Positions 870-52,585 of a stretch of 64,000 nt of DNA are shown here, piece after piece. Positions within the stretch are counted from its first letter, which is position 1. Each line of letters opens with the position of its first letter. The DNA comes from a virus (lineage: Duplodnaviria; Heunggongvirae; Uroviricota; Caudoviricetes). Below the pieces are notes generated by a model. That model made no database searches. It was not told the origin of the DNA and saw nothing but the letters and a program-made list of their open reading frames with translations. The stretch lies in IMG/VR virus record IMGVR_UViG_2711768056_000005. One strand, written 5' to 3'. The position numbers and the translations under genes are program-made.

Positions 870-886
870 CAATTTATTAGAGCAAA
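870..886 (-). promoter_or_regulatory. C1 operator match (15/17 to ATTGCTCTAATAAATTT), 4 nt downstream of the pacB stop
   Basis: Minus strand reads TTTGCTCTAATAAATTG. Positioned to control minus-strand transcription into the c4-like/icd-like/ant-like module. Confidence 0.55.
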
Positions 887-889
887 TAT

Positions 890-2374
890 TCATTCATTAA
901 GCCATGCCAGAGCTTCATCAACCTGCGCTTCGTCTTCGACGCTAAGCACTTCATCCTGGGGAACATAATCCGCCAGCATAGCGAAACAATATGTATCCCA
1001 ATGGTCTGGTGAGTGCAGGTTGAGTTTTTTCTTCATATCCTCCTTACTCATCACCTTCCATTGACCTGCGGAGTTAATCCCTACAGGGATTTTCGACGCT
1101 TCCTCAATAGTTTCATTACCCTTATCCAGTCTCATACGACCAGATTTTACGGCCTCTGCGGCTTGAACATTGGCATAAGCACGTTTATCAAAGTACAGGC
1201 TCTTATCTTCACGGCTATGCATCTTTTTACCCCAGCGTATACGCTGTACGGTAATACCATAATACTCGTACATCAGATCCGCCGTTGCTTTACCCAGGCC
1301 ATCGCCGTCTATCGCTATGGTGATATTGGGGAATCGCTCAGGATTACATTCTGCGAAAATTTTGGCGGCAAGCTGCGTTTCTGTAACGTCTGTGTATTCC
1401 AGCATTCGATAGTTGATTACACGGCGTTTATTTCGCTGGCCGGACACCATCATGATATTGATAACGGACTTATCCCGTCCCGTACCACCAGCAACGTCCA
1501 CACATGCAAGCCAGCCCCATCCTTTGGCAATCTTGACTTTCCGCCGCGTTGCACGTTCAACCTCATCACGTCCAAGAAGGAAGCCATCCTGTGATTTAGG
1601 GAATAGGCCGCGTACCTTAATCATGTACATAGGGTTATCACGCCCGCCGTACTCCGCCAGCTTCATTTTGATAAATGCTGGCGTTACCAACGGTGATTCC
1701 TCACTGTTAAGCGTGATCGCCGTATAAACGCCATCAGGGTTACCAGGACGCTTGGCCAGTTTATGGTGTGTATCGTAGAAATAGCCGCTTGGGCGTGTAG
1801 GCTGTGACAGCAATAAGATGCGGTTATCCTGTCCGGTAAGAGCACCGGTGATGATACCGAAAGCTCTATCACTGACACCGGAGGCTTCATCGATAATATA
1901 CAGAAGATGATCTGCGTGTTCACCGGCGAGAGCTTCTTCACTTCCCAGACGAAAGCCCTTCGGTACTACAGTCCATACACCTTTACCAGTAATCTCATAG
2001 AAAGCGGTTTCTGTCAGAACAAAATAATCAGCAAGCCATGGGAAACGGCTGGTGGCAGTAGCCCAGTTTATCTTGATGTACTTGAATATACCGGTCATTA
2101 CCTGCTGAATTTTGTTCGCAACGATAATGGCACAGGCACCTGGATACATGATTATGAACAACATGATCATGATAGAAGTCATGTCTGATTTCCCGGTACC
2201 GTGACCAGACGAAACAGATGTCTTGCTACCCTGTTCCTGCACAGACTCAATAATCAGATCCTGCTGCCAGGTAGGTGTTTTGCCGAACAAAACATCAGCG
2301 GCAGCAATCCAGTCATAACGATATAGCGCCACCAGCTCGCGCCAACGTGGATCCGTTACGCAACTTCTGGCCAT
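890..2374 (-). CDS. pacB: Terminase large subunit PacB (494 aa)
   Basis: 494-aa ORF whose start overlaps the pacA stop (TAATG). Size and position match P1 pacB; terminase ATPase/nuclease-like content. Confidence 0.88.
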
Positions 2375-3567
2375 TAATCATCATCCCCGTATAGCTTGCG
2401 GGTAACTTCTTCGTCTTCCTCCTCGTCTTCGTCCAGGTCTTGTTCCAGCCATGGGTCGTTTGATACACCTTCAGTATCAACATCTCCATAACCGCCTGTA
2501 TCAACGATATCGGCGATTTCTTCCCTACGCTGCTCAATCCACAATGCGGCATCGGCGCGGCGGTTGGCGGCCCGTTCTCGCGCAACTTTGTCCAGATCTT
2601 CAAGAGAAGGACCACCGACGGCAGTTTGCCTTTCCTCATCATCGGTATTGGTCTTAGGAGCACGCAGATCGGCTTTGATTTGCTCCAGCATCAGGGGCGG
2701 CACTTTCCCGCCATGCGCCTCGATAAATTCAGCTGCTTCCAGCACTGACCAGTTATTTTCACGCTTTCGTTCGTATGCCAGCTTAACAATGCCAGCTTGC
2801 CCCATAGACAAAGCGTGCTTTTCCGCCTCCCGGCTTTCTTTTCGATAGTTATTCCGGATGCTGTAAATGGTGTTGATCAGACTGCTTATCTGCGCGGAAC
2901 AGCTGTTTAGCATGCTCGCGATACGGTATTCAGGCGGAGTACCTTCATCATCGGCTTTTTGCTGATCGCGCATTTCCTGCACCAGGCGAATACACGTATC
3001 CCTGGCGTTCTCCAGCATAAGGAGATGAGAAAGAGACTTTTCCAGAAGAGTGGTTTCCAGAACATCGGCCCCGGACCGACGCAACATAGCGCGCGCGGCC
3101 TTCCGCGCTTCAACGTTATCTATCAGGTAATCGCCAGCTTCGAATTCAAAGCGTTCACCATCATCATCCAGGGTGTCGCGTTCCAGGCGATCACGCAAGG
3201 TCCGGTGGGCACGGGTGATCACGTCATGATCATCAGAACGATCATTTATGCGCTTATTTTGGCGCTTCGCATTCTCGACTGCGACACTGACAATGGCATT
3301 AACCCTTTGTTTTTCTGCTATTTCAGCCGCAATGTGATCACCGGAATGTTGATCATTAGAGTGATCAATGATCATGCTTTTTAGTGGCTTCCTGACTGGC
3401 TTATTTGGCTTGCGGCTGTCCGCTGTCCTGGTGTCTTCTTTGAAGGCACGGAGATAACGACGTGCGGTATTAGGGTTAAGATTAAACTCGGCGGCATACT
3501 GTGCGATGGTGTAACCACCATCTCGCGCCAGGCGAGCAAAATTCTTCTTGTGATCGTCCCAGGTCAC
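2374..3567 (-). CDS. pacA: Terminase small subunit / pac-recognition protein PacA (397 aa, GTG start)
   Basis: 397-aa ORF with an N-terminal helix-turn-helix-like region and an acidic C-terminus; carries the TGATCA hexamer clusters of a P1-type pac site; RBS AAAGGAAG before the GTG. Confidence 0.85.
3216..3374. promoter_or_regulatory. pac: pac packaging site: two clusters of TGATCA hexamers (Dam GATC sites) inside pacA
   Basis: Hexamers at 3216-3221, 3227-3232 and 3239-3244 (CGATCA), then four at 3335-3340, 3350-3355, 3362-3367 and 3369-3374, about 100 bp apart. This is the 3+4 arrangement known for P1 pac. Confidence 0.7.
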
Positions 3568-3652
3568 TTATGCTTCCTTTCGTAAAAACTCTTTTTGACG
3601 CGAGGGTAACGAAAGTCACATGTCAAAAGGCCCGGAACGGGCAAGCAATCAA

Positions 3653-4105
3653 TCAGATACGTGCGGATGTGGCATTACCGTAATGACGGTGCTGACGGGC
3701 CACCTTATTGAAAAGTTGACGCGCCATTACCCAAGGCTGGTGCTCCCGGCGTTCCTTTTCGTCCTGCGTCATATAGAGTTCGTTCTGGAGTTTTTCATCA
3801 AACCGGCGCGGAGCGCGGCTGCGGCGAAAGAATTCAGGATTCAGAGAGTGGATCTGAAATCTACGTGGGCGTGTACTGTCATCAATCAAAACAGACGAAT
3901 ACTTAGACACAGCGATAGCCTTTAAGCGCAGATAAACATCGCGCTTATCGACATCCAGATGCGGGTATTCCTTTTCAAGGATTGCTGCGAGTTCTTTCGC
4001 TGATAGAAGAGATTTAGTGCGGATCATGTAATCCGCAATCTCATACGATGTAATTCGTGAGTGATTTATTTCCATGAAGTGGCGTCCCTGCCAGTTAAGT
4101 AACAT
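3653..4105 (-). CDS. lpa: Late promoter activator Lpa-like protein (150 aa)
   Basis: 150-aa basic protein directly upstream of pacA, preceded by a C1 operator match; position and size as I recall for P1 lpa (gene 10). Confidence 0.6.
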   Translation of the reverse strand: MLLNWQGRHFMEINHSRITSYEIADYMIRTKSLLSAKELAAILEKEYPHLDVDKRDVYLRLKAIAVSKYSSVLIDDSTRPRRFQIHSLNPEFFRRSRAPRRFDEKLQNELYMTQDEKERREHQPWVMARQLFNKVARQHRHYGNATSARI

Positions 4106-4175
4106 CCTGTCACCTACTGATTAGCCCATGTCAACTAATCAACGACGAATATAATACCCTCGATTAAAGAAATAG

Positions 4176-4192
4176 CAATACATTAGAGCAAT
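4176..4192 (-). promoter_or_regulatory. C1 operator match (14/17) upstream of lpa
   Basis: Minus strand reads ATTGCTCTAATGTATTG, about 70 nt upstream of the lpa start. Confidence 0.5.
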
Positions 4193-4193
4193 T

Positions 4194-5237
4194 TTATCTA
4201 ACGCTCGACGAGTGACTTGTGATAACGCCGACTCCAAGCGCGTAATCAAAGAACAATCGTTGATGCATCGCCAGCCTGCCGTGCGTCTTCTCCCAATTAT
4301 CGCGGTCACGCTCAATATCACGCTGGCATGACTGGCACAGAGGAATTGCGTAAATGTCATGCGCGCATAATCGACTATGACGAACGATATAAGGCGTAAT
4401 GTGAGCGCCAGCTCCCGCAGCTCCACACCCACAGCATGGACGGGAAGCAACAAAGTCCATGTACTCAGGTAATTTTAGCGATTGCAGTTTTGGTATTTTG
4501 AAATGCGCCATGCCAGGGTCGGAGTCAACATCCACAGGGCATACTTTTGCACGCATCGGCGCGGCGCGTTCTTCCATCATCTGAACATATGCTGTAGCGC
4601 GATCGTCATACGGGCGAATATCCGCCTCTTTCAGAGGTCCGCTATCCTGCGTTGCAGCCCTCACCTTATTTATTGATATACGGCAGACTTCTTCCGGCAT
4701 GAGGTGGATCATGTTGCGCATGAAAGCCCACCAGCACAGCTCCTGAATACTTAAATCATGACCATCAGAAAGGCCCATTTCCTGACGAGCGACATCCAGT
4801 ATCCAGTTAACGCGATTATTATGCAGCGTTTCTTTCAGCTCATTAAAACCACGCATCCGGTAATGATTATCGTGATGCCAGCACAACAACACCGCGCTGT
4901 TGTCTCGTTCAGCGTGGACAATATGGTTGTCACACCAGCTACGATCTGCGGCCTGGCATTGCCCCTCTTTCCTGCGCAACCACGCCACCAGCGCGTCAAT
5001 TCCACCAATACGGCGAAACAGTTCATCGCTGTTAAAAAACGGCTGCAACGCCTCATTTGTTGCCATGGTTTGCTCGGTAACAACGAGGCCGTCTTCCATG
5101 TGCTCGATTAACTCACGCGGCACCGGCTCCATAATAAATTTACGGCCAGCCTCCACCAGCTTTCTGACCTCCTGATCCACTTTGAACGTGGCGAGGCCAA
5201 GCTCTTTCTGTACAAATGGAGTAATTACGGCTTTCAC
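4194..5237 (-). CDS. pdcB: Hypothetical protein (347 aa), pdcB position
   Basis: Long ORF between doc/pdcA and lpa; symbol assigned by synteny only; Cys-rich C-terminal segment (CCGCG...CxxC). Confidence 0.4.
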
Positions 5238-5264
5238 ATCACACCTTTAATCACTGATTGGGCT

Positions 5265-5444
5265 TTATCTGCTGCCCGGCATTCTCTGTTTAAGCACAAC
5301 CATTTCCTGACGGCATAACACAGCAATAGCTGTCCTGGCACCAATTTGCTTACCAACCAGGTATTGCTTTACCTTGCGGCGACTCACGCCATCAAGAAGC
5401 ATCTTTAACGCTTCACGGGACAACTTGTTGTATTTGCGTGCCAT
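5265..5444 (-). CDS. pdcA: Small basic protein (59 aa from internal Met), pdcA position
   Basis: Track ORF 5265..5465 trimmed to the ATG at 5444, which sits 4 nt after the doc stop with the GGAG of the doc 3' end as RBS. Confidence 0.4.
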   Translation of the reverse strand: MARKYNKLSREALKMLLDGVSRRKVKQYLVGKQIGARTAIAVLCRQEMVVLKQRMPGSR

Positions 5445-5448
5445 TAAT

Positions 5449-5829
5449 CTACTCCGCAGAACCATACAATCTACGTAACGTGTCGGCGACAGAAGATACA
5501 GATATCTCGCCAGTCGCAGCGCCTACGGTAAGGTCTGCCAGTTCAGGTGAATCAAATACCTGCACCCCGTTACGGCGTAGAAATAGCAGCGCACTGTTTA
5601 GCGCGGTACGCTTATTGGCATCATTGAATATATGCCCTCTCGCTGTAGCCACCAGGTAGGTGGCGGAGACTTCGAAAAGGTCGGTGATCTCTTCGTAGGC
5701 AACTCTGGCCTGAACTCTCCCGATAATGGCCTCTGCCCTACCCGGATCAGACATTCCCGGCAAGCCGCCGTAGCGGTTTATATTCGCATCATGAAGCGCA
5801 ATAAGTTCTTCCGGTGATATATGCCTCAT
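5449..5829 (-). CDS. doc: Doc toxin (Fic-fold kinase) of the phd-doc addiction module
   Basis: 126-aa product [25 protein letters not shown]... matches P1 Doc as I know it; start overlaps the phd stop (TAATG). Confidence 0.95.
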
Positions 5830-6050
5830 TATCGGTTAACCAGTTCCTTGTTGGTGGAGTCCAGGGTGTCAAACAGGGATGCAAATTCAGCATCCAGCGC
5901 CGCTTTTTTGTAGGCTTCAAAAGTAGCCTTGCTGACAATTACTGCTGGCTCACGGCCTCTGCGGGTGATTTCAACCTCTTCCCCGGCTTCAACATTGTTG
6001 AGCACTTCAGAAAGGTTGCCGCGCGCGGTACGGAAGTTAATGGATTGCAT
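5829..6050 (-). CDS. phd: Phd antitoxin (73 aa)
   Basis: From the third codon of track ORF 5829..6056: [49 protein letters not shown]..., the P1 Phd sequence as recalled. Confidence 0.9.
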
Positions 6051-6057
6051 AAACACC

Positions 6058-6095
6058 TCGTGTACTCGTTATGTGTACACAATTATAAACTTCAC
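6058..6095 (-). promoter_or_regulatory. phd-doc promoter/operator with GTGTAC palindromes
   Basis: GTGTACTC and GTGTACAC sites at about 6060-6080 immediately upstream of phd, plus a TATAAT on the minus strand near 6084-6089; matches the known Phd/Doc autoregulatory operator architecture. Confidence 0.6.
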
Positions 6096-6122
6096 AGGCA
6101 TAAAGCACCAGCACTTTGCAGC

Positions 6123-6512
6123 TTAAATCACCGGACAATCATCAAATTCCCCACTTCGGGTATCATTAATGACATGAGTGATCACACCAAACACAGCATT
6201 ACTCCCCGTGCATCCATCGTCATCCACTGGTAACGCCTCTTTCTTCCCGGTGCTTAAATCCTCCAGGTGCTGGCGCGGATACTTCCTGTATCTTTTTATG
6301 CGATATTCACCTTCCATAGCGCAGACAAGCAGCGAACCATCAACCGGAGTAAGCGAGGAATCAACCACCAGCAAAGCACCCTGCAATATTCCCTCACGGT
6401 GATGGCTGTCTGCCGCCCGCATGAAGTAGGTCGCTGATGGATGCCTGATTAGTTGCTGATCAAGAGAAATTCTGCTTTCAACATAATCCGCCGCAGGAGA
6501 AGGGAAGCCCAT
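6123..6512 (-). CDS. humD: HumD, UmuD-like SOS mutagenesis protein (129 aa)
   Basis: 129 aa with an S24 peptidase-like C-terminal domain; LexA box 20 bp upstream of its start. Confidence 0.85.
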   Translation of the reverse strand: MGFPSPAADYVESRISLDQQLIRHPSATYFMRAADSHHREGILQGALLVVDSSLTPVDGSLLVCAMEGEYRIKRYRKYPRQHLEDLSTGKKEALPVDDDGCTGSNAVFGVITHVINDTRSGEFDDCPVI

Positions 6513-6531
6513 AGCGTTTTCACCTCAATAA

Positions 6532-6551
6532 TACTGTTCATTTATACAGTA
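6532..6551. promoter_or_regulatory. LexA (SOS) box TACTGTTCATTTATACAGTA
   Basis: CTGT-N8-ACAG palindrome in the divergent intergenic region between humD (minus) and the plus-strand operon starting at 6687. Confidence 0.8.
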
Positions 6552-6686
6552 TACATTAAAGAGACACCTTTGGTGCAAACGCGTTACGTACATCAACCAC
6601 CGCTGATGATTTTGTGCTCTTTGCTACTATTCATCACCAACGGATCAGCGTAACCTCGTTGCCAATCAGTTAATAAGGAATTAGCT

Positions 6687-7271
6687 ATGCCTAATCGCAT
6701 TCCTCTCGATCCTGTATTGCCCAAAAATTTTGACTGCACTCCTAACGAGAAACGCTCTAAAGCTCAGCTGGACGCCTGGTGGGATCATCCCTATGGGGTT
6801 ACAGAACATGACGGGAAAATTGTTGTTTATTGTCTGAATGGTGGCGCGTGGGACCGTCCATCCGTGCTTGGTTTGGCAAATAACTATGATGAAGCCTGTG
6901 AACTTGCCGAAAGACAGCAGGCTAGATGGGTGAAAACACGTTCTGAACCGACATTCATGTTTTCAAAAGAACCGCCATTTATACTGGCGAGGATGCCGCA
7001 GCGACCGGATCATCAACAAGAAATTGTTGCTGAATTTTCCTCAAGGGATGAGATGAATCTCTTCTCATTAAAGCAGGAAGAAAGGGATCGCGTCGAAGTG
7101 TCTCCAACTCTCGACCACAACCGGATGAACCTGGCCCAACTCGCCTGGTACAGCAAAGAATTAGAGATGTCTATTGCCCGGCTTGAAAACGAAAAAGCCG
7201 CTATCCAAGTCCAGCACGAAGTAGTTCTGAACCGGATTAGAGAAATGCAAAACGATAACAGGGGATTTTGA
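6687..7271 (+). CDS. Hypothetical protein (194 aa), LexA-box-proximal; lxr-like by position
   Basis: ORF with RBS AAGGAA 8 nt upstream; divergent from humD and sharing its LexA box. Confidence 0.5.
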   Translation: MPNRIPLDPVLPKNFDCTPNEKRSKAQLDAWWDHPYGVTEHDGKIVVYCLNGGAWDRPSVLGLANNYDEACELAERQQARWVKTRSEPTFMFSKEPPFILARMPQRPDHQQEIVAEFSSRDEMNLFSLKQEERDRVEVSPTLDHNRMNLAQLAWYSKELEMSIARLENEKAAIQVQHEVVLNRIREMQNDNRGF

Positions 7272-7634
7272 ATGGCTAAAATCGAGTACCATCGCGATCG
7301 CGGTAATTACCTGGAAATATACGATCATGAATCTCTTAACGATATCAACGATGCGTTATATGAATACTGTGAAAAAATGAGCATCACAGATGCACCTGAT
7401 GCATTTGTCGAGCTACCGGTATATCTCCGCGACATCTATGCAATACGGACGCCGCCCGTATCGGTAATTCACATTGGCTATGTCCGCCTGTCCATCGAAG
7501 AAGATGAAGATCGTTATATCGTGCGCCACTATACATTGGACAGAAAAGAGCTTCCCAATGAATGGAACATGAGTAATTTCTACAACGGTGAATATGGCTT
7601 AAAACCCGCTAAGAATGGCGCGGGCATTGCGTAA
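7272..7634 (+). CDS. Hypothetical protein (120 aa), translationally coupled to the 6687 ORF
   Basis: ATG immediately follows the upstream TGA (TGAATG); acidic protein. Confidence 0.5.
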   Translation: MAKIEYHRDRGNYLEIYDHESLNDINDALYEYCEKMSITDAPDAFVELPVYLRDIYAIRTPPVSVIHIGYVRLSIEEDEDRYIVRHYTLDRKELPNEWNMSNFYNGEYGLKPAKNGAGIA

Positions 7635-7645
7635 TAGCCTAACAA

Positions 7646-7885
7646 CTATTCTGTTTTCTGATATGCTGGATCGTTCCCTTTTGGCAACTGGAGGCTTAAC
7701 TGCCGGTAGTGCCGTAACCGTTCCATGAAATAGGTGCGCAGGTTCTCTGGTTGCTCGCGGGCTACCTGTTCAGCTATGACAGGTATGTTCAATCGCTCTT
7801 TGTACGCCACACCGCTGGCAGCCAGATCAACGTTAACCTTATCCTGTTCTTCCTGACTTTTAGCTGCAATATTCCAGTCGCTCAT
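7646..7885 (-). CDS. hot: Hot, homologue of DNA polymerase III theta subunit (79 aa)
   Basis: Product ...[43 protein letters not shown]... is colinear with E. coli HolE theta as recalled. Confidence 0.8.
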
Positions 7886-7887
7886 AT

Positions 7888-8154
7888 TTAAGGCTCACAT
7901 TTCCAGATGGTATTCTGAACACCCGAACCGGGCGCTAGATGAGGGTTAGCGTTCGCGCTATGCTGATATACTGCTTTAGACTTCCCATATTGCTGACAGG
8001 CTTTATCTGCGGTTTTTTGCAGGCTATCCAGGCCATACCAACCATCTGACTGTATGCTTACCTTTTCACCGTCGTTGTATTGCACCATTGCACACCCAGA
8101 TATAGCCAGTATCGTGCCGACAATAACGCTTTCCCATAAAACTCTATGCAACAT
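7888..8154 (-). CDS. Putative lipoprotein (88 aa from internal ATG)
   Basis: Signal peptide with lipobox-like LAISGC; track ORF begins at a TTG, ATG two codons in. Confidence 0.45.
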
Positions 8155-8155
8155 A

Positions 8156-8189
8156 GACAAAAATCCCCTCTGTGAATTGAGGGGATTTT
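8156..8189 (-). terminator. Rho-independent terminator-like hairpin
   Basis: AATCCCCTC-N8-GAGGGGATT stem followed by TTTTTG on the minus strand, downstream of ORF 8200..8835. Confidence 0.45.
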
Positions 8190-8199
8190 AGCATGGTGA

Positions 8200-9191: not shown

Positions 9192-9197
9192 ATAAAT

Positions 9198-9491: not shown

Positions 9492-9498
9492 ACTTACC

Positions 9499-9621: not shown

Positions 9622-9669
9622 TATAAATTTTCTCTCGGTGTCGTAGGTGATAGCACCATAATTGATAAT

Positions 9670-9903: not shown

Positions 9904-9979
9904 CGTTACCCCCAGAAGATAAAAATAGCGGCAATCGCCATAGCTACGCCTACAATCGCAAATGCTTCAGGCCAGCTTA

Positions 9980-10935: not shown

Positions 10936-10945
10936 AAATTATGCC

Positions 10946-15092: not shown

Positions 15093-15109
15093 ATATTTAT
15101 TAGAGCAAT
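15093..15109 (-). promoter_or_regulatory. C1 operator match (16/17), overlapping the stop of the HAD phosphatase gene
   Basis: Minus strand reads ATTGCTCTAATAAATAT; identical 17-mer to the site at 34809..34825. Confidence 0.6.
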
Positions 15110-17184: not shown

Positions 17185-17201
17185 ATTGCTCTAATAAAAA
17201 A
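17185..17201 (+). promoter_or_regulatory. C1 operator match (14/17), plus-oriented member of an inverted operator pair
   Basis: ATTGCTCTAATAAAAAA; faces the operator at 17234..17250 across the perfect inverted repeat AAACGTGATG-AGTGTAC-ATCACGTTT. Confidence 0.45.
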
Positions 17202-17233
17202 CGTGATGAGTGTACATCACGTTTTAAAAATAT

Positions 17234-17250
17234 GGAATTATTAGAGCAAT
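17234..17250 (-). promoter_or_regulatory. C1 operator match (14/17), minus-oriented member of the inverted pair
   Basis: Minus strand reads ATTGCTCTAATAATTCC; sits 2 nt after the stop of ORF 17252..17953. Confidence 0.45.
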
Positions 17251-43657: not shown

Positions 43658-43716
43658 TCAGGGGAAGTTCTCCGTTTAACATAGCGCCCCGTGCGGGGCG
43701 CATAACAGGGAAAGTT

Positions 43717-45306: not shown

Positions 45307-45315
45307 GGGAATACA

Positions 45316-46131
45316 ATGAGCAAAAACTTTTTTCAATCCGGGGCATTTTTGGGGAATGGACTGTCTCGTTTCGCTTTGAACTCTGATCCTGTGCAGCTGA
45401 TGGAGTCTGCCCGAGCAAGCGCCGAACCGCCAACAGATCCGGTTATTAATAATAATCCGGAACCGGCGGCACAGACTTACGATAACGTTCCATCTGCCCC
45501 GGCTCCTGAGCAAATCCTGGAAGGGAAAGACGGTAAAGAATGGACCGTCGAACAGGCGCACCAGATGATTCTGGAAGCCGCAAATCGAAGTGCTATGCAG
45601 AATGCGTTGAGTGATGCGGCCGACGCCGTTTTCGCCTGGGCTGATAGCGGTGATCTGACTTTCGACTCCCTTGATGGTTTCGTTCAGGCTATCGCTGGTA
45701 TCTCTGATGACGACGACTCCGAAGTTACAGAAGAACAGGACGATGCCTATAACGAAGCATGGGCAAATGTTGCTGACTTCCTCGCAGCATGCGGTGTAGA
45801 TGATGACCTGATCGAAGCACTGGCTGACGATGAAGACGACGACGCAGCTGCTGATGTTGGTGCCTCTATCGCTGGTTTAGATAGCGACGACCGCGACGAA
45901 CTGGAAGCGGCGTTTGTTGTTGCTGGCACTTCTGATGAAATGCTGACTGAAGCATTTAAGAAGGTTGTTCGTAACGGTGAGATCAAACTCATCCGTAAAC
46001 GCCTGCGTAAAAAACGTCTGACTGCGGCTCAAAAATCGGCGCTGAAAAAAGCGCGTCGAAAAGCCCAGACCGGCGCGGCAAAACTTGCCCGCAAAAAGTC
46101 AATGAAACTGCGCCGTAAGCGCCTTGGCTAA
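45316..46131 (+). CDS. Acidic protein with strongly basic C-terminal tail (271 aa)
   Basis: Asp/Glu-rich body then KRLRKKRLTAAQKSALKKARRKAQTGAAKLARKKSMKLRRKRLG; followed by a GC hairpin. Confidence 0.5.
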   Translation: MSKNFFQSGAFLGNGLSRFALNSDPVQLMESARASAEPPTDPVINNNPEPAAQTYDNVPSAPAPEQILEGKDGKEWTVEQAHQMILEAANRSAMQNALSDAADAVFAWADSGDLTFDSLDGFVQAIAGISDDDDSEVTEEQDDAYNEAWANVADFLAACGVDDDLIEALADDEDDDAAADVGASIAGLDSDDRDELEAAFVVAGTSDEMLTEAFKKVVRNGEIKLIRKRLRKKRLTAAQKSALKKARRKAQTGAAKLARKKSMKLRRKRLG

Positions 46132-46138
46132 AGGAGGA

Positions 46139-46160
46139 GGCCGGAGAACTCCGGCCTTTA
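46139..46160 (+). terminator. Terminator-like or attenuating GC hairpin
   Basis: GGCCGGA-GAACT-TCCGGCC followed by TTTA. Confidence 0.4.
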
Positions 46161-46166
46161 ACTTGA

Positions 46167-46748
46167 ATGGCACCTATTCCTTATGGGGTTTACAGCCAGG
46201 CTGACGGTGTATCGCCATTTCTGAAAGTTACTTTAACGAACTCTCAGTACCAGGTTACCGGATATATCAGCCAGGGGGCGGCAATGAACATGGCCCAGAA
46301 TTGGGAAGCGCCGTTTACCGGTATGTCCATGGGATCTGTTGCTGGTGCCTTCAGTGGTTTTGCGCAGGTTGGTACTGAAACAACGTCGGTTGCCCGTTGG
46401 AACAGCTTAATGGTTTGGGAAGGGGGAACACCGCCGACTTTCACGCTGCCAGTAACTTTCATCGCTTTGTTTGACCCATTCACGGAGGTTTCAGGAGCTA
46501 TCGCCGCATTGTCAGCGATGATTAGCCCGGAACTTAAAGATGCCAGTATTGGTGGTCGAATCCCGGAGCGCGTGACGCTAAACATTGGTCGCCGGATCAA
46601 CATCATTGATGTCGCTATCCAGGACATAAGTTTCGATCTCGATGCGCCCAGGGACAGCAATGGGCATTTCCTGAAAAACACCGTCAACCTCCAGTTGACC
46701 GGTTCTTCGATATATAACAGCTCCGATATTGTTCGGGCGTTCCAGTAA
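46167..46748 (+). CDS. Putative tail tube or tail-associated protein (193 aa)
   Basis: ORF in the sheath-proximal structural operon; assignment by position. Confidence 0.4.
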   Translation: MAPIPYGVYSQADGVSPFLKVTLTNSQYQVTGYISQGAAMNMAQNWEAPFTGMSMGSVAGAFSGFAQVGTETTSVARWNSLMVWEGGTPPTFTLPVTFIALFDPFTEVSGAIAALSAMISPELKDASIGGRIPERVTLNIGRRINIIDVAIQDISFDLDAPRDSNGHFLKNTVNLQLTGSSIYNSSDIVRAFQ

Positions 46749-46759
46749 AAGGATTTTAT

Positions 46760-47269
46760 ATGGGGCACAATAACACTAAGGGAAACCGTAAATTTATTAA
46801 GGGCCGCTATACTGCCAACGCGGCCAAAGGCGAACGACTGGTATCTTCTGAATTCCAGCTCACTTTTGCAGGCCATGAAGATATCAGCGTACTGGTTCGC
46901 ACGTCGCAAATTCCTGAAATGACCCGCGAGGATGTGGAGGACTATGGTCCGAATGGTGTGAAGTTCAACCAGCACGGTCCAATTCGAAACTCTGGGGAAA
47001 TCCAGGTCCAGTGCGTGGAGACTATCGAAGGCGATATTCTTCAGTTCATTAAAGATCGCATTGCGGCGAAGGACTATGTTGATATCACGATGGCTGCGAC
47101 CCCTGAATCCAAATCTTCCGGGGTTAATGCTGTGACAAAAGCTGCTACAACAATTGAAATGTTGGACTGCAAAATCTACAGTGATGCAATCGACTTTAGT
47201 ACCGAAGATGTGACTGCCGCTGTGCGCCCGTCACTTCGTATCGTTTACAACTGGATTGAGTGGGATTAA
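46760..47269 (+). CDS. Putative tail-associated structural protein (169 aa)
   Basis: RBS AAAGGA; followed by a strong terminator. Confidence 0.4.
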   Translation: MGHNNTKGNRKFIKGRYTANAAKGERLVSSEFQLTFAGHEDISVLVRTSQIPEMTREDVEDYGPNGVKFNQHGPIRNSGEIQVQCVETIEGDILQFIKDRIAAKDYVDITMAATPESKSSGVNAVTKAATTIEMLDCKIYSDAIDFSTEDVTAAVRPSLRIVYNWIEWD

Positions 47270-47288
47270 GAGTCATCCCTTGTATTTT

Positions 47289-47312
47289 AAAGCTCCTTCG
47301 GGAGCTTTTTTG
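47289..47312 (+). terminator. Rho-independent terminator
   Basis: AGCTCC-TTCG-GGAGCT followed by TTTTTTG. Confidence 0.75.
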
Positions 47313-47352
47313 CGCTTAAATTATGCCGGTATAGATAGATTTTGAGCATGTT

Positions 47353-47649
47353 ATGGAAATTGATTTTTCATACTCTCCTGAGACGATAGAAAGAAGATTC
47401 GAAATAATTGGATGCATAACTATTTCAGATGAGCATTATTGGGTTCTCTATGATGCCAATACATGGTTATGTGCCTTAGCAGAATGTCAGCCATCGTTAT
47501 GTGTAGGGGAGGGGGCTTTTCGACATAAGGTGCTGGCTACACTTGAAGTGAACACGTTACGATATTGGTGTGTAGAAATACTTAGTGATAACAAAGAATT
47601 GCATTTATTATTGCTGAATAAGTGTGCTTCTCTGCGCAGAAACGCATGA
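47353..47649 (+). CDS. Hypothetical Cys-containing protein (98 aa)
   Basis: Isolated ORF between two terminators. Confidence 0.4.
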   Translation: MEIDFSYSPETIERRFEIIGCITISDEHYWVLYDANTWLCALAECQPSLCVGEGAFRHKVLATLEVNTLRYWCVEILSDNKELHLLLLNKCASLRRNA

Positions 47650-47775
47650 GAAAACCCAACCGCTCTCCAGGAATTATCAGAAGAATATATGCGGAAAGTT
47701 ATAGCTAGCTATTGAAAAGCTAAAGTAGATCGGTTAGATTTGCCTTACTCATCTACCATGTGTAGAAAGAGCGAT

Positions 47776-47818
47776 CGAACCCGATACATAGCAATATGTG
47801 TCGGGTTCAGCTTTTTTA
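47776..47818 (+). terminator. Rho-independent terminator
   Basis: GAACCCGAT-N14-GTCGGGTTC followed by AGCTTTTTTAT. Confidence 0.6.
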
Positions 47819-48280
47819 TGTCCCAAGTGCTCTTTTTCTGCTTTGTTTGAGTGTTCTGATTTTACTGTCATAGGTTACAACATAGGCTGTTTTGAGAAGC
47901 CAATAGTCTCTACGTGCGGATAGCACAACAACGTAGTTTTCACACTCATTCCAGATTACCCACTCTTCAGTTGGTCCTCGTCTTTCAGACCAACATGATA
48001 TATCGCAATGGTTATAATTCCTTATCATATGCGCGATCCAGCGAATTCGCTTGCACCGTTCAAGATCGGGTATACGTTCTTCTTCTTTTTTTCCCTCTGA
48101 TACTAAATGCCAAAATCCGAACTCTTTCCCATCATATTCCGGTGAATAACGTAATCGAACAGGGAGACCCTTAAACGTTATATTAGAGATTAAAATGTCT
48201 TCTCTGACAACATCATATACATCGTCTATATACTCTTGCCAACTTCCATTGAAGTACAATAAATCTGGCATTTGAAGCAT
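47816..48280 (-). CDS. Hypothetical protein (154 aa), second gene of an AT-rich two-gene cassette
   Basis: ATG overlaps the upstream stop (TGATG) with GGAGG RBS; Trp/Cys/Tyr-rich. Confidence 0.5.
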   Translation of the reverse strand: MLQMPDLLYFNGSWQEYIDDVYDVVREDILISNITFKGLPVRLRYSPEYDGKEFGFWHLVSEGKKEEERIPDLERCKRIRWIAHMIRNYNHCDISCWSERRGPTEEWVIWNECENYVVVLSARRDYWLLKTAYVVTYDSKIRTLKQSRKRALGT

Positions 48281-48984
48281 CAGCGAGCCTCCCACACGAA
48301 AATATTAAATTTACTTTCTGTTGGAAGAGTGCTTTTTAGTAACTCCCTGTTTGTATGTGATTTTATCCTGTTTATGACTTGGATTTTTCCCGCGTTGCTA
48401 TTCATTCCTCGATGAACGTAGCCTAACGCACCAATGAAAAGATCCGTTAGCTGCAATTGTTGCACTTCATGAGATCGTATATGTTGAATTCTGTTTATCG
48501 ACTCATGATTGTAATCATAGCGATCATTGTGAAGAACCCCTCTTAATTTCTCAATTTTTTCAATACCTAAAGTATCTTTTATATCTAGGTAGATATTGTA
48601 TGTGTTGTTACTTTCTATTATGTTTTTTAAGACATAAAAAAACATCTTATAATAGAAAGTATTATGATCTTGATGGAATCGAGCATGGTCCAGTTGCTCT
48701 TTATCAGGAACAACAACACCTCTAAAGCGCAATGCTGGGTTGCTGAAGAAGTAATCTACGACATCTAAGTAAAATTCAACTTTGGACGCAGATACTTTAG
48801 TCCACTTGATTTCGAAATCAGGTTTTAGATTGTGTTTTAATTTTAATTCCTTGATGTCTCTAGCAATTTTTTTTGTGATAGAGCCAGGACACCAAAGTGC
48901 ACCCAATACCATGACTTTATTATGATCATTTAGTAGGTGACAGGATTCATCGCAGAATACATTAAATGTTCTTCGGTTCAACAT
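48280..48984 (-). CDS. DUF3800-like protein (234 aa), first gene of the AT-rich cassette
   Basis: N-terminal VFCDESCH and C-terminal LQLTDLFIGAL resemble the DUF3800 signature by eye. Confidence 0.45.
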   Translation of the reverse strand: MLNRRTFNVFCDESCHLLNDHNKVMVLGALWCPGSITKKIARDIKELKLKHNLKPDFEIKWTKVSASKVEFYLDVVDYFFSNPALRFRGVVVPDKEQLDHARFHQDHNTFYYKMFFYVLKNIIESNNTYNIYLDIKDTLGIEKIEKLRGVLHNDRYDYNHESINRIQHIRSHEVQQLQLTDLFIGALGYVHRGMNSNAGKIQVINRIKSHTNRELLKSTLPTESKFNIFVWEAR

Positions 48985-49132
48985 GTTAACTCCACTTATT
49001 GTTAGGTAGAATTGTCCGTTAGTTGTTTATTAATTGCAATAAAGGGACGTCCAGATTTGACAACTATGTCCTCTTACTAGGACACCTATGAGTTTGCCTC
49101 ATGGCAAACTAGAGGTGTTGAAAGTATGCATG

Positions 49133-49149
49133 GTTATAATTAGAGCAAT
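49133..49149 (-). promoter_or_regulatory. Weak C1 operator-like match (12/17), 3 nt downstream of the repL stop
   Basis: Minus strand reads ATTGCTCTAATTATAAC; conserved ATTGCTCTAAT half intact. Confidence 0.3.
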
Positions 49150-49152
49150 TCA

Positions 49153-49998
49153 TTACCCTCTGAATCCTGCCGGTATACCCCATTGTTCGTTATCTTTATT
49201 TTTGGCTAAAACCGCATTAAGAGCTTCGTTTACCGTCATGCAATGCGGCAGATTATCGAAGTTTGATATCCCGCCAATATCAGGAGAACGCTTGTTCTTC
49301 AGGAAAGCATATTTCCGCGAAGCCGCCTCTACTTTCTGCTTGAACTCATGTTTTTGAGCGCGTTTTTTGGATAACCGCAGATTGTCTGCCTTTGCTTTTG
49401 CCTCAGCGATCCAGGAAGTCAAATTTTTGAGCCTGGTCGTTCCGGCACCGCCGGAAACTGATCTTTTTGTTTTTTTAATTTGTGACTTCTTATTCTTTAT
49501 TGCCACGTCATCCTGACAGGGGGAGGGGGTATCATTTTGACATGGGGGTGTGGATAAAAAATTAAATAAAGCCAATGTCTTAGCGAGAACAGCTTTAACC
49601 TTGGTTGCCGCTGAAGAGATCTTTAATTTGCTTTCAATCAGCGCATTTTTGGCTTGTTGTGCGAAGGCCAAAAAGGATGGTGTAAACCGGTACAGGTTAG
49701 CGCGACGTTCATGGTGATCGCCGATAACAATCTCTACAGACAGAATTCCTTTGTTTACAGCTTCACGGAATGCACGAACGACGGTTGATTGGCTATAACC
49801 AGTTTCTGCCGCGATCAGGCGGTGAGGCTTGTGAATGAAGTATTCACTGGTTGTTGCCGCGAGATTTGCACATTGCGACAGGATATGCCCGGCGCTACGG
49901 GATAGACCGGAGTGTGTTACAAAGCAGGCCAATTCATAGCCAGAAAAAGTAAAATCGCTCATCGTTATACAGCTCAGGAAAGTGACTTTAGCCAGCAT
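49153..49998 (-). CDS. repL: Lytic replication protein RepL-like (281 aa; start may be the internal ATG at 49962)
   Basis: Directly downstream of kilA in the C1-controlled operon. Confidence 0.55.
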   Translation of the reverse strand: MLAKVTFLSCITMSDFTFSGYELACFVTHSGLSRSAGHILSQCANLAATTSEYFIHKPHRLIAAETGYSQSTVVRAFREAVNKGILSVEIVIGDHHERRANLYRFTPSFLAFAQQAKNALIESKLKISSAATKVKAVLAKTLALFNFLSTPPCQNDTPSPCQDDVAIKNKKSQIKKTKRSVSGGAGTTRLKNLTSWIAEAKAKADNLRLSKKRAQKHEFKQKVEAASRKYAFLKNKRSPDIGGISNFDNLPHCMTVNEALNAVLAKNKDNEQWGIPAGFRG

Positions 49999-50027
49999 TA
50001 CAATGCTGGTGGTTCTTACTACGTTTG

Positions 50028-50828
50028 TTAGCGCGTTGCCGCGACAGGTACCAGCACACCAGCATCAAGCAATCGCTTCATAAGCCACTGCTGACCTTTG
50101 CCGGTTATACGAGTCGTGAAAGAAATCCTGCTTCCATTGCTTGTATCGATCACGGTTTCTTTGAGGGTGAAGTACCCACGGGATATGTATTCTTGTTTTG
50201 GGACGTTCCTGCGCTCACCGGTTGCGATCAGAATTCCGTTATCACGCAACCAGGTGAAGAGATAGTTTTGGCCCAGGCCGAGCACTTTGGCATAGTTGCC
50301 GATTAGAACCCCGCTGGCGGTAGCAACGCGTTCGGCAAATTCGACTTTAGGGGCATCCAGAAGCATTTTTTGCTCCAGCCGTTGCTTTTGCTCTGCCAGA
50401 TCGGCAGCCAAACGGAGAGCTTCAGGGAGACTCTGCGGAATAGCAGGTTGTAATCTTCCGGCTCGATAGTCGATAAATGTCTGGTTTACCTTCAGCCGAA
50501 ACGCGGGAGAAATCCAGCCTGCGTACTCCACTGCGAGCAATTCATGGGCAAAAGTGCCGCCGCCACGGCCTTCGAACGAAACTATGCAATTCTGCATAGT
50601 TTCTTTTTCAAGCTCTTCGATGAGCTGTTTAGCTGACAGCGTTCTTAGCCATTGAGCTGGCGCTTTATGGGCACCGAGTCCGCTCGCTCTGTGTAGAGCA
50701 TTAAGGTTGTAACGGCCAACGCGGTCGGTCGTAATTTCAACACCACAAATAACGGGCAGAGTGGTTGAAGGATCGACATTTTGATGAAGGTTTGATATAT
50801 TCATATCCGCATTGAATGTTTGTTGCAT
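50028..50828 (-). CDS. kilA: KilA (266 aa): KilA-N domain plus a C-terminal domain shared with Ant
   Basis: N-terminal domain (...RYNLNALHRASG...) of KilA-N type; C-terminal 140 aa colinear with the Ant C-terminus; preceded by an operator. Confidence 0.75.
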   Translation of the reverse strand: MQQTFNADMNISNLHQNVDPSTTLPVICGVEITTDRVGRYNLNALHRASGLGAHKAPAQWLRTLSAKQLIEELEKETMQNCIVSFEGRGGGTFAHELLAVEYAGWISPAFRLKVNQTFIDYRAGRLQPAIPQSLPEALRLAADLAEQKQRLEQKMLLDAPKVEFAERVATASGVLIGNYAKVLGLGQNYLFTWLRDNGILIATGERRNVPKQEYISRGYFTLKETVIDTSNGSRISFTTRITGKGQQWLMKRLLDAGVLVPVAATR

Positions 50829-50896
50829 TTTTTCTCCAAATTTGCATCAACCTTCAATCATCAGCTCGAAATGGTGATTCTTTGCACTTAGAAAAC

Positions 50897-50913
50897 GAAA
50901 TTTATTAGAGCAA
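50897..50913 (-). promoter_or_regulatory. C1 operator match (16/17) upstream of kilA-repL
   Basis: Minus strand reads TTTGCTCTAATAAATTT, about 70-85 nt upstream of the kilA start. Confidence 0.65.
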
Positions 50914-50992
50914 ATTTTTCTAACTCGATCCAGATCGGGTTGGATGATCTGCTCAGAAACCTGCCAGTTTGCTGGCAGGTTTTTTTCTTTTG

Positions 50993-52036
50993 TTAACCTA
51001 TTGCTACTGGTTTTAACAAACCAGCATCAAGTAGCTTGCGAGTTAACCACTGCTGGCCTTTACCCGTTAATTGGGGCGTCAGCCGTATCTGGTAGCCATT
51101 TTCATCATCCAGCACCACTTCTTTCACCGTGAAATACCCCGCGTTGATGTACTGTTGGCGCGGTACGTTTTTGCGCGCTCCAAAAGCCATGAGAATGCCA
51201 TTCTGGCGCAACCATGAGAAAAGGGCGTTTTGCTTAAGTCCAACAACCTTTGCAAAGTTCCCGATCAGGATTCCATTGGCCACTGATACCCGGTCGGCAA
51301 AATCGACTTTAGGGGCTGCGGCCACCAGCTGTTGTTCCAACTGCATTTTCTGTTCTGCTAACTCGGCAGCCAGGCGTAGGGCTTCTGGTAATGTCTGGGG
51401 GATCGATGGGGTAGGGGAGTTTGCCTGCTGTAATTCTTCCAGTTTGTCGATCAGCGAACGGCGGACCGCTTTTGACTCGCGCGCGGCGACTCGCAGGGCT
51501 TGTTTGTAGGTCATGGTTATGACAACCATAGGCGTACCGCCACCTGGCGGCACGGTTGCACTTTTTGTGTAACCGTCCTCACCTTCTAATTCGTCGAGTA
51601 TTTTTTCGATGAATTTGTTGTTCCGAACCTCTGGTTCCCCACATAACTTACGCGCTTCATTGACCATCTTTAACAGTGTCTGGCTGTCGATTGTGTCTCC
51701 AGTGTTGGAGATAACATTCACAGCTGGTGATGGCGTAGCTGAAGCAACAGGTGCTGGTTTTTCAGCATTCAAATTATTACCGGTCATTCTGCGTGCCTCC
51801 TTTCTCATTTCTGCTGCCACCGTTGCGTAACGTAGACGTCCTTGTTCAATCAAATAATCCCTGATCTCGGCTATCAGTAGCCTGTTGATCACAGCCTTAT
51901 CTGTTCGGGTATAAAAACGTCTGGTTATCATGAAATAGTTGGCAATTGCGCCGGGGATCTCCCGTGTCGGCATACAGGTTGTATGCAGGGCGATCGCTTC
52001 GGCTATTTCATTACGGGTGACGAGAGGTTTTTTCAT
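50993..52036 (-). CDS. ant: Antirepressor Ant (347 aa)
   Basis: Start overlaps the icd stop (ATGA); C-terminal KilAC-type domain; immediately downstream of icd and the c4 region. Confidence 0.8.
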   Translation of the reverse strand: MKKPLVTRNEIAEAIALHTTCMPTREIPGAIANYFMITRRFYTRTDKAVINRLLIAEIRDYLIEQGRLRYATVAAEMRKEARRMTGNNLNAEKPAPVASATPSPAVNVISNTGDTIDSQTLLKMVNEARKLCGEPEVRNNKFIEKILDELEGEDGYTKSATVPPGGGTPMVVITMTYKQALRVAARESKAVRRSLIDKLEELQQANSPTPSIPQTLPEALRLAAELAEQKMQLEQQLVAAAPKVDFADRVSVANGILIGNFAKVVGLKQNALFSWLRQNGILMAFGARKNVPRQQYINAGYFTVKEVVLDDENGYQIRLTPQLTGKGQQWLTRKLLDAGLLKPVAIG

Positions 52037-52254
52037 AAATCCCCCTGAACGTCGGCAGAGAAGGGGAGGTTCCAGTAACTAAGTGAATTGCGCGAGTTAG
52101 TTGAAAAACGGGCAGTAAAAATGCAGGGGCCATCAGGCAATTGAGAGCGTGCTTCGTCTTCTGTTGCTGCGATGACGAAGTGATAGTGGTGTTTTTTACA
52201 GGAATAGAAACGCCAGATGAATTCTTGGCGTGCGCAAGGATTGGCATTAACCAT
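52033..52254 (-). CDS. icd: Icd (73 aa), small protein translationally coupled to ant
   Basis: 73-aa ORF MVNANPCARQEFIWRFYSCKKHHYHFVIAATEDEARSQLPDGPCIFTARFSTNSRNSLSYWNLPF; size and position as recalled for P1 icd. Confidence 0.7.
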   Translation of the reverse strand: MVNANPCARQEFIWRFYSCKKHHYHFVIAATEDEARSQLPDGPCIFTARFSTNSRNSLSYWNLPFSADVQGDL

Positions 52255-52289
52255 AGTTACGGCCTCACAATCAGGTTTAACAACCTGCT

Positions 52290-52400
52290 ACCCGCTGCTA
52301 AACAGGTGGCAGGACGTGACGGGGTTAGCAGACTGGCGATTGTGAAACCAGCAGGCCGAAGCCTCCCCATCACGCCCCACCATAATTTGGGCGTAACGCG
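52290..52400 (-). ncRNA. c4: c4-like antisense repressor RNA region of the immunity module
   Basis: Non-coding stretch between the operator at 52569 and icd; GATTGTGA at 52338-52345 is complementary to TCACAATC at 52265-52272 beside the icd RBS. Boundaries not determined. Confidence 0.4.
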
Positions 52401-52568
52401 GTTTTACGGACACAAAAATACCGCAATATCGGATATCTGCGGCTGTCCGCACAATCATTCAGGCTGCTAAACCCGGTCGCAGAATTTGCTACGACGGCGA
52501 AACTATAAGCCTGAACGATTAAAAGGTCAATATGATGCGAAAAGATAGCATTCGCGACTTAAAAATAC

Positions 52569-52585
52569 AAATTTATTAGAGCAGG
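52569..52585 (-). promoter_or_regulatory. C1 operator match (15/17) upstream of the c4-icd-ant operon
   Basis: Minus strand reads CCTGCTCTAATAAATTT. Confidence 0.6.

Follow-up and report, generated by a model that had tools for sequence, protein, structure and literature searches.

Known C1 operators of phage P1 in a P1-like plasmid-prophage and an additional operator-like site before a second antirepressor cassette

We analysed a stretch of viral DNA of 64,000 nucleotides, called the window below, over which a 17-base motif is scattered at thirteen sites. The window is a P1-like (Punavirus) plasmid-prophage, and the motif is, as far as sequence can tell, the known C1 operator set of phage P1. 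In total, twelve of the thirteen sites are already known: they belong to the textbook P1/P7 C1 operator network, annotated base by base in GenBank, and they confirm only that the immunity circuit of P1 is retained in this plasmid-prophage. The thirteenth, at 870-886 on the minus strand, is a new but modest addition to the set, with no earlier mention in the literature found. We are highly confident that C1, the immunity repressor of phage P1, has its operators at these sites, with 870-886 as a duplicated Op51/P51a arrangement; the repressor gene itself probably lies just beyond the window. The DNA of the window and of its relatives shows that the sites exist and are enriched, and it shows their orthology and conservation.

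The window and its relatives

Phage P1 and the window are collinear, with 93-99% identity across most of the window length, the window being in reverse orientation relative to P1, and the gene order at the operators is the same in both. Among the relatives, pE2-2 (NZ_CP048917) is 100% identical to window positions 1-900 and 98.7% identical (4834/4900) to positions 1-4900. Further along its coordinates diverge from those of the window, which has about 3 kb extra before the Op86 region. For positions 7000-16000, a match of 99.7-100% was found in NZ_CP098199 and NZ_KP453775.

The initial annotation, made from the letters of the window, had stated that the repressor gene is not in the window, and this was borne out. 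A c1 or coi gene hidden there was rejected, as tblastn of the window with C1 and Coi came back empty, with nothing better than E = 2.8. Since c1 lies outside the window, it is the relatives that point to its presence in this element: in those sharing the first 0.9-1.5 kb of the window, c1 is found just beyond the window start, about 0.8 kb upstream. The C1 of pE2-2 is identical to P1 C1 at 280/283 residues (99%).

Operators with counterparts in P1 and P7

Sites were compared with the asymmetric 17-mer ATTGCTCTAATAAATTT, used as the reference motif, whose conserved core is TGC(T/A)CTAAT (TGCWCTAAT). Operator names and promoter positions were taken from the P1 GenBank record AF234172 / NC_005856, which uses new names for the operators; the former Op names are given here in brackets. 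All thirteen sites score 12-16/17 against the reference, and twelve of them are positional orthologues of an operator annotated in P1 or P7, the exception being 870-886. The orthologous 17-mer is identical to that of P1 in eight cases out of twelve (Op53, 55, 68, 72b, 82, 86a, 86b and 94), and the core is untouched by the four single-base changes (Op51, Op72a, Op83 and Op88), each of which occurs at position 1, 2 or 16. The P1 C1 operators (Op2-Op99) share with the window the 17-bp asymmetric consensus, the positions relative to the same genes, and both the monovalent and the bivalent types.

Olpa (Op94; 4176..4192, minus strand, 14/17) lies between pdcB and lpa, carries the exact P1 17-mer and overlaps the -35 of Plpa as annotated in P1. 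OpmgT (Op88; 15093..15109, minus strand, 16/17) is found at the end of pap, upstream of pmgT, and differs from P1 by one base (position 16, C->A). Odmt (Op68; 34809..34825, minus strand, 16/17) stands upstream of uhr-hrdC-dmt, and as had been noticed earlier its 17-mer is identical to that of OpmgT, both being ATTGCTCTAATAAATAT. The homologue of Oppp (Op83; TATGCACTAATTAATTT, 19951..19967, plus strand, 4 mismatches) lies between pmgM and pmgN, and O26 (Op82; 20858..20874, plus strand, 15/17) lies in the divergent gp26 / pmgL intergenic region. Orlf (Op55; 49133..49149, minus strand) is located 3 nt past the repL stop codon, upstream of rlfA; it matches at only 12/17 but has the exact ATTGCTCTAAT core and is exactly P1 Op55. 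OrepL (Op53; 50898..50914, minus strand, 16/17) overlaps the -10 of PkilA and would control kilA-repL. Finally, Oc4 (Op51; CCTGCTCTAATAAATTT, 52569..52585, minus strand, 15/17) precedes c4-icd-ant1/2 and is a P7-type variant. The window copy of the immI region, at 52230-52640, is 98.8% identical to that of P7 and departs from the P1 type in its C4 loops and targets; the P7 record has an operator annotated at the same Oc4 position, with T at position 1 where the window has C.

The initial annotation had spoken of thirteen matches, almost all oriented with minus-strand operons. All 12 positions that it listed exist, and eleven of them coincide with AF234172 features annotated 'phage repressor C1' (protein_bind). 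However, only twelve were listed, Op83 (19951-19967) having been overlooked. The listed starts were exact in 11 of 12 cases, 50897 being off by one base (the correct start is 50898), and the orientation was overstated, since 9/13 sites are on the minus strand and 4/13 on the plus strand.

The sites that had been described as two palindromic pairs correspond to two arrangements already known, the Op86a/b pair and the bivalent Op72ab. OpmgRb (Op86b; 17185..17201, plus strand, 14/17, the P1 17-mer) and OpmgRa (Op86a; 17234..17250, minus strand, 14/17, overlapping the predicted PpmgR -35) do form an inverted pair around a perfect hairpin, with 13-nt arms that are 100% complementary, in a region of 126 bp that is 100% identical to P1. 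The hairpin itself (17198..17225, minus strand), which lies after pmgQ and between both Op86 sites, consists of a perfect 11-bp stem and a 6-nt loop, then a U-run, and looks like an intrinsic terminator. The overlapping inverted pair at 31276-31303, across the dmt stop codon (31294-31296), was also recovered as described. It is made of Obanb (Op72b; 31276..31292, plus strand, 15/17) and Obana (Op72a; 31287..31303, minus strand, 16/17; position 1 A->G relative to P1), the two halves of the bivalent ban operator, which are inverted 17-mers with an 11 bp offset and 6 bp in common, as in the bivalent Op72ab / Op99ab. Obana overlaps the dmt stop codon as well as the P1ban/P2ban promoters. Op83 was considered as a third bivalent operator and rejected: its partner at 19962-19978 has the same offset but matches at only 11/17, which is not significant.

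By analogy with established P1 biology, C1 would bind each of these asymmetric 17-bp operators, single or paired, and bound C1 would block the sigma-70 promoters lying under or beside them. The genes expected to be silenced in the plasmid prophage are lpa (the late-gene activator) and the lytic replication genes kilA-repL and rlfAB, together with the ban helicase operon, dmt, several early 'pmg' operons and the antirepressor operon c4-icd-ant.

An additional operator-like site beside pacB

The site at 870-886 (TTTGCTCTAATAAATTG, minus strand), a putative operator, matches the reference at 15/17 and has a PWM score of 21.4, within the range of true operators. Its deviations from the reference are T at position 1, as also in OrepL, and G at position 17, as also in Olpa, both of which are annotated P1 operators. 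It is one site more than P1 has: it is paralogous to Op51 and orthologous to no P1 site, and its absence in P1 is explained by P1 c1 directly adjoining pacB. The description of this site as lying after pacB was right as to position but misleading as to meaning, for it fronts a second c4-type antirepressor cassette and is not associated with pacB. The site aligns with Op51 together with the adjoining GT(R)TTTTT(W)AG of P51a, and by this alignment the Op51/P51a arrangement has been duplicated before a second isrK/C4-icd-ant cassette.

A standard promoter scan around 870 found no promoter. A lenient scan gave hexamers of 7/12 each, below the threshold of the standard scan, namely a candidate -35 TTGTGT (872->867, minus strand) and a candidate -10 TACATT (849->844, minus strand), which may form a weak P51a-like promoter whose -35 is overlapped by the last 3 nt of the site. 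We lean towards 870-886 being a working C1 operator that would place the second antirepressor cassette (isrK/C4-2, icd-2 and an ORF6N-KilAC Ant-2) under C1 control, and the role that we propose for it draws, like the binding and promoter occlusion by C1 set out above, on what is established for P1.

Alternatively, the other twelve sites would be true operators and 870-886 a non-functional relic of the copying of an immI-like cassette, or of recombination, between c1 and pacB. The location of the site would fit such an origin, as it lies 3 nt past the pacB stop codon, exactly where homology to P1 ends (window 892), and so would the weakness of the overlapping promoter. Nevertheless, the 16-nt core of the site does not change in any of the 7 relatives, some of them variants with about 88% identity, while both flanks differ across alleles that are 88-100% identical, although this conservation is only modest evidence of selection since the relatives sampled are few and close to each other. 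Moreover, the operator/-35 geometry is the same as in P1 Op51/P51a, the cassette downstream is intact with its C4 loops and targets matched, and an unrepressed antirepressor would be expected to be counter-selected in a prophage. We consider a relic unlikely and favour a working operator, which most likely would subject the second cassette, gated by its own antisense RNA, to the same C1 control.

The second antirepressor cassette

The cassette behind the 870 site (1..795, minus strand) is immI-like and inserted between c1 and pacB. It comprises, all on the minus strand, an isrK-type leader (795-718; Rfam isrK, 60.8 bits), a C4 antisense RNA (693-606; Rfam C4, 75.9 bits against a gathering score of 45), an icd-like ORF (551-330; an Icd-like CDS in pE2-2) and an ant-like ORF that starts at 333 and runs past the window start (a KilAC antirepressor CDS in pE2-2). 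The encoded Ant is 56% identical to P1 Ant1 and has ORF6N and ANT domains. The C4 of the cassette itself is complementary, G.U pairs being allowed, to the targets a1 (TTGGCCT), a2 (TTGGTCT) and b1/b2 (GTCTAAGG). The cassette has all the parts of the immI-type c4-icd-ant class, that is, a C4 RNA, loop-complementary targets in the leader and at the icd ribosome-binding site, and icd and ant ORFs.

The same parts in the same order are found in P1 immI c4-icd-ant and in the Gifsy-1/Stx-phage isrK-C4-antirepressor modules (RF01695, RF01394, RF03163): a leader with the a1/b1 targets, a C4-type RNA, the a2/b2 targets over the ribosome-binding site, an icd-like ORF and a KilAC antirepressor. The second cassette differs from P1 immI in its isrK-family leader, in the ORF6N middle domain of its Ant and in its C4 recognition loops, which are also unrelated to those of the antisense RNA of the window's immI copy. 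In contrast to the Stx-phage copies of the isrK-C4 cassette, where a site of the 870 type is absent, the second cassette has a putative C1 operator of the P1 type at its candidate promoter. P7 appears to lack a second cassette beside pacB, since it was not among the phage matches covering window 1-891.

An antirepressor gene (ant) with two short hypothetical orfs, inserted between pacB and c1, has been described in the P1-like plasmids pTZ20_1P and RCS47 (PMC6906374), and it is the same insert at the same place. The word "operator" has 0 occurrences in that paper, and its passages on the insert leave the C4/isrK RNAs unmentioned; nor did the literature found describe an operator at the pacB-c1 insert.

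The cassette is present in at least 271 PLSDB plasmids (at least 80% coverage), and P1-like phage-plasmids of this common cassette-bearing variant often carry resistance genes. By means of an operator copy of its own, the second cassette appears to be tied to the same repressor. If this is true, a large subgroup of P1-like phage-plasmids would have a second, independent immI-type locus, which could change how they are induced, their superinfection immunity and their cross-talk with lambdoid prophages bearing isrK-type modules. Were the locus functional, models of the lysis-lysogeny decision built on P1 only would leave out part of the control in many natural P1-like plasmids.

Specificity of the motif

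In the window, 12 sites come within 3 mismatches of the reference, against 0.2-0.43 expected, and the core TGCWCTAAT gave 13 matches against 1.02 expected. The exact core is present in 12 of the 13 operator sites, the core of Op72b being TACACTAAT, as in P1. Once the orthologous sites are taken out, the classes with 3 to 5 mismatches are at or near the shuffle expectation. For Op55 (12/17) and Op83 (13/17), the motif count alone gives no significance. In particular, 23 sites were observed in the five-mismatch class against 16 expected, a class in which 49133 is not separable from chance by mismatch count, and this site was accepted only because it has the exact core and is the same 17-mer as P1 Op55.

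The PWM scan that had been proposed as a check agrees with this picture. A weight matrix trained on five Op99 sites alone, all located outside the window, recovered 12 of the 13 sites with scores of 13.0-24.2, and Orlf/Op55 scored under 9, the limit for reporting. With this matrix 9172 (14.7) and 26736 (13.4), both presumed to be chance sites, score inside the range of the weaker true sites; with 5 mismatches each, they were set at chance. Two other candidates were also left at chance level: 57055, which has 3 mismatches and a broken core, and 29299, a core match only, within the signal-peptide coding sequence of an SPFH lipoprotein.

It had been proposed that the C1 reading would fall if the motif were a generic AT-rich promoter element; as a rival we weighed a generic element of promoters or terminators in place of a repressor binding site. 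The composition of the motif would suit this, as 13 of its 17 bases are AT, and so would the position of most copies, which are intergenic and beside predicted promoters; in the P1 annotation a promoter lies over or beside every orthologous operator. However, the invariant part is the G/C-containing core, with 13 matches against 1 expected, the sites occur in both orientations, and their register to the promoter varies, from over the -35 (lpa) or over the -10 (kilA) to upstream of the -35 (dmt, c4) or downstream (Op86b). The 17-mer is also kept in a related phage (see below), and a generic element is very improbable. That the sites are chance matches picked out through familiarity with P1 deserves practically no credence and is already refuted by the shuffle (0/100 shuffles reach 12 matches), mismatch-class and core counts, to which the exact coincidence with annotated operators adds, even though the basis of the initial annotation was mixed, with P1 gene names used, and its weakest site (12/17) sits in the class with 16 expected by chance.

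Conservation in Cronobacter phage JK004

Cronobacter phage JK004 has about 70% DNA identity to the window across the pmgQ-pmgR region, and its C1 is 77% identical. It contains 18 sites that differ from the reference at no more than 3 positions, where 0.1 would be expected, placed before uhr, ban and lpa, after pap, at the Op86 pair and in the c1/coi region. The full 17-mer is kept at orthologous places despite diverged intergenic flanks, which argues against a generic element and for repressor binding sites. In the comparison of the hairpin at 17198..17225 with JK004, 98.5% of the cells are paired, with 2 compensatory pairs and G.U changes.

C1 operators of phage P1 in the window

We compared the window with phage P1 (AF234172 / NC_005856), whose GenBank record lists 'phage repressor C1' binding sites individually. 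By megablast, window 30000-36000 was 99.7% identical to P1 on the opposite strand, with other opposite-strand matches to the Punaviruses RCS47, JL22, 673R5 and P7. When the entire window was searched by blastn, collinear blocks of 93-99% identity were found with P1 30000-94800: window 892-7254 corresponds to P1 93204-86842, 14220-28476 to 85182-70924, 30375-37158 to 69594-62807, 39409-52583 to 61315-48142, and 53960-63999 to 46628-36463.

Window sites were assigned to P1 operators with the blastn coordinate map and exact 17-mer look-ups. The 17-mers of Olpa/Op94 (4176), OpmgRb/Op86b (17185), OpmgRa/Op86a (17234), O26/Op82 (20858), Obanb/Op72b (31276), Odmt/Op68 (34809), Orlf/Op55 (49133) and OrepL/Op53 (50898) were exact. 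Substitutions relative to P1 lay at edge positions in every case: position 16 C->A in OpmgT/Op88 (15093), position 1 C->T in Oppp/Op83 (19951), position 1 A->G in Obana/Op72a (31287) and positions 1-2 AA->CC in Oc4/Op51 (52569). The neighbours of the sites are also those of P1, namely pdcB/lpa, pap/pmgT, pmgQ/pmgR, pmgM/pmgN, pmgL/gp26, the dmt/ban operon, upfC/uhr, repL/rlfA, ant/kilA and c4-icd.

The initial annotation had announced thirteen matches to the motif. The sites are real, although twelve were listed and not thirteen. All twelve were present on rescan, with matches in the reported range of 12-16 of 17 and with identical 17-mers at 15093 and 34809, as claimed; the site placed at 50897 starts at 50898, and a genuine site at 19951-19967 (plus strand, TATGCACTAATTAATTT) had been overlooked. 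Allowing at most 3 mismatches to the consensus ATTGCTCTAATAAATTT, we found 12 matches against 0.43 expected, a number reached in 0 of 100 shuffles; a block-shuffle control gave an expectation of 0.2 for the same search. The core TGCWCTAAT occurred 13 times against 1.02 expected. Mismatch count alone does not support the 49133 site (12/17), since 23 five-mismatch sites were seen against 16 expected.

We asked whether the motif is no more than a generic AT-rich promoter element. A weight matrix trained solely on the five Op99 sites, all outside the window, gave scores of 13.0-24.2 for 12 of 13 sites; Orlf/Op55 fell under the reporting threshold of 9, and the presumed chance sites 9172 (14.7) and 26736 (13.4) overlapped in score with the weaker true sites. 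The sites occur in both orientations and in varying registers relative to annotated promoters. In JK004, a distant P1-like Cronobacter phage with 70% DNA identity over the pmgQ-pmgR region and a C1 77% identical, 18 sites had 3 mismatches or fewer, against 0.1 expected; they precede uhr, ban and lpa, follow pap, form the inverted Op86 pair and also occur in the c1/coi region. Both operators of the Op86 region are intact in the alignment with JK004 while their surroundings have diverged. The motif thus goes beyond an AT-rich element and matches the sites annotated in P1: the observation is real and its interpretation as C1 operators is correct. It is a rediscovery, in a P1-like plasmid, of the annotated and already known P1/P7 operator network, for which the consensus and 22 dispersed C1 operators have been stated (PMC8546580). 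The sole increment is a thirteenth, unannotated and putative operator linked to a second antirepressor cassette.

At JK004 29881-29925, the ban operator consists of two direct copies 28 nt apart; in P1 and the window it is instead a pair of inverted sites that overlap. A weak inverted partner of the Op83 homologue, CGTGAAATAATAAATTA, lies at 19962-19978 (minus strand) and is not significant alone; it shares the 11-nt offset of the bivalent operators Op72ab and Op99ab and resembles the degenerate Op99b (ACGAAAATAATAGATTT). Op83 is annotated as monovalent in P1.

A probable operator at a second antirepressor cassette

In P1, c1 abuts pacB, whereas the first 891 bases of the window differ. On the minus strand of window 1-886, between pacB and the off-window c1, lies a second cassette resembling immI, the c4-icd-ant antirepressor region. 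It comprises an isrK-type leader (795-718; Rfam, 60.8 bits), a C4 antisense RNA (693-606; Rfam, 75.9 bits), an icd-like ORF (551-330) and an antirepressor ORF (ORF6N and KilAC) running from 333 off the window start. The antirepressor is 56% identical to P1 Ant1: the N-termini are similar and the KilAC C-termini almost the same, while its central part holds an ORF6N domain.

We aligned window 905->540 with the immI regions of the window and of P1. The 870-886 site (minus strand) and the following bases (TGCTCTAATAAA-TTGTGTTTTTTAG) align with Op51 and the start of the P51a promoter (TGCTCTAATAAATTTGTATTTTTAAG). A -35-like TTGTGT starts with the last three bases of the site and is followed after 17 nt by TACATT. 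For a second weak promoter (TTGCGC, 18 nt spacer, TATGCT), the predicted start is at ~795, the exact beginning of the isrK model. Both promoters, each only 7/12, are putative; their layout mirrors the operator-overlapped P2c4 and P1c4 of P1. The deviations of the site from the consensus occur in annotated P1 operators (T1 in OrepL, G17 in Olpa), and its 16-nt core TTGCTCTAATAAATTG is unchanged across seven relatives, even in cassette alleles just ~88% identical, while flanking bases vary. In Stx-phage isrK-C4 copies, homology is confined to window 580-794, and the operator core was not found within 2.6 kb in the one copy examined (phage F039). JK004 is like P1, with c1 adjoining pacB and no second cassette.

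The C4 loops of the cassette show complementarity to the cassette's own targets (a1 TTGGCCT, a2 TTGGTCT and b GTCTAAGG, of which b overlaps the icd ribosome-binding site) and none to those of the immI copy. Because of this, the cassette appears to be an intact unit of separate specificity. At >=80% coverage, 271 PLSDB plasmids carry it. The insert had been noted earlier, as an antirepressor gene (ant) and two short hypothetical orfs located between pacB and c1 (PMC6906374); in the literature as far as it was accessible to our search, we found no mention of its operator.

The repressor and the proposed circuit

The initial annotation placed the repressor gene outside the window, and tblastn bore this out: C1 and Coi queries gave no match there better than E = 2.8. 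In relatives sharing its first 0.9-1.5 kb (673R5, 99.3%; RCS47, 93%; plasmid pE2-2, 100%), c1 is convergent with the window-start ant gene and ends ~0.8 kb before the window start. The C1 of pE2-2 is identical to that of P1 at 280/283 positions, and the same operator specificity as in P1 is expected.

In P1, C1 binds asymmetric operators, its binding is strengthened by Lxc/Bof, Coi and Ant1/2 inactivate it, and C4 RNA blocks icd-ant translation. This picture comes from the work of Schuster, Sternberg and Yarmolinsky and is partly restated in PMC8546580. Given this established biology, the window would show the target side of the C1 circuit: lpa, master activator of the late promoters; kilA-repL and rlfAB, for lytic replication; and ban, uhr-hrdC-dmt, several early pmg operons and c4-icd-ant. 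Most likely, the same logic would apply to the second antirepressor, with C1 at 870-886 occluding the P51a-like promoter, and a constitutive downstream promoter supplying isrK/C4 RNA that would keep icd-2/ant-2 untranslated. From our analysis, such control is probably functional.

A hairpin between Op86b and Op86a

As claimed, the inverted pair 17185/17234, whose 13-nt arms are perfectly complementary, encloses a perfect hairpin (17198-17225; 11-bp stem, 6-nt loop). The composite of pair and hairpin folds at -26.9 kcal/mol (z = -10.9). On the minus strand, in the pmgQ -> pmgR direction, the stem is followed by UUUUUUAUU, a U-run overlapping Op86b. In JK004, both partners differ in two stem pairs (A-U to G-C, G-C to A-U), and three further pairs are now G.U, a pairing that works solely on the minus strand. 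In a small alignment of six sequences, 98.5% of stem cells pair, with one disruptive change. These patterns favour an intrinsic terminator acting at the RNA level, placed between the two operators where the pmgN-pmgQ operon ends. The Op86 region (126 bp, hairpin included) is 100% identical to P1, whose record holds no feature for the hairpin.

Other differences from P1

The main immI region (50996-52640, minus strand) is P7-type and not P1-type, with 98.8% identity to P7. Here the C4 loops and targets are a TTAGCAG and b GATTGTGA, against a TTGACAG and b GTTAGTGA in P1, with matching changes at a1, b1, a2 and b2. By blastn, window 1-891, 8566-14220, 28476-29565, 37158-39409 and 52583-53960 had no P1 match; the last three and 57175-58767 are further replacements. 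The 5.6-kb stretch 8566-14220, downstream of OpmgT/pmgT, carries small lambdoid-type genes (ead/Ea22-like, PAPS-reductase family, DUF551, ASCH, eaa) and is presumably part of the Op88-controlled early transcription unit. No homologue of simA or simC was found within the window, and tciA is missing, the replaced segment holding an SPFH-domain lipoprotein ORF (28495-29322) instead. Divergence from P1 is also seen in the segment adjoining the plasmid replicon and in part of the sit/tail region. Three minus-strand tRNA genes (28395-28467, 30471-30543 and 30549-30621) lie in the ban operon region, as do tRNA-Ile, Thr and Asn in the P1 record.
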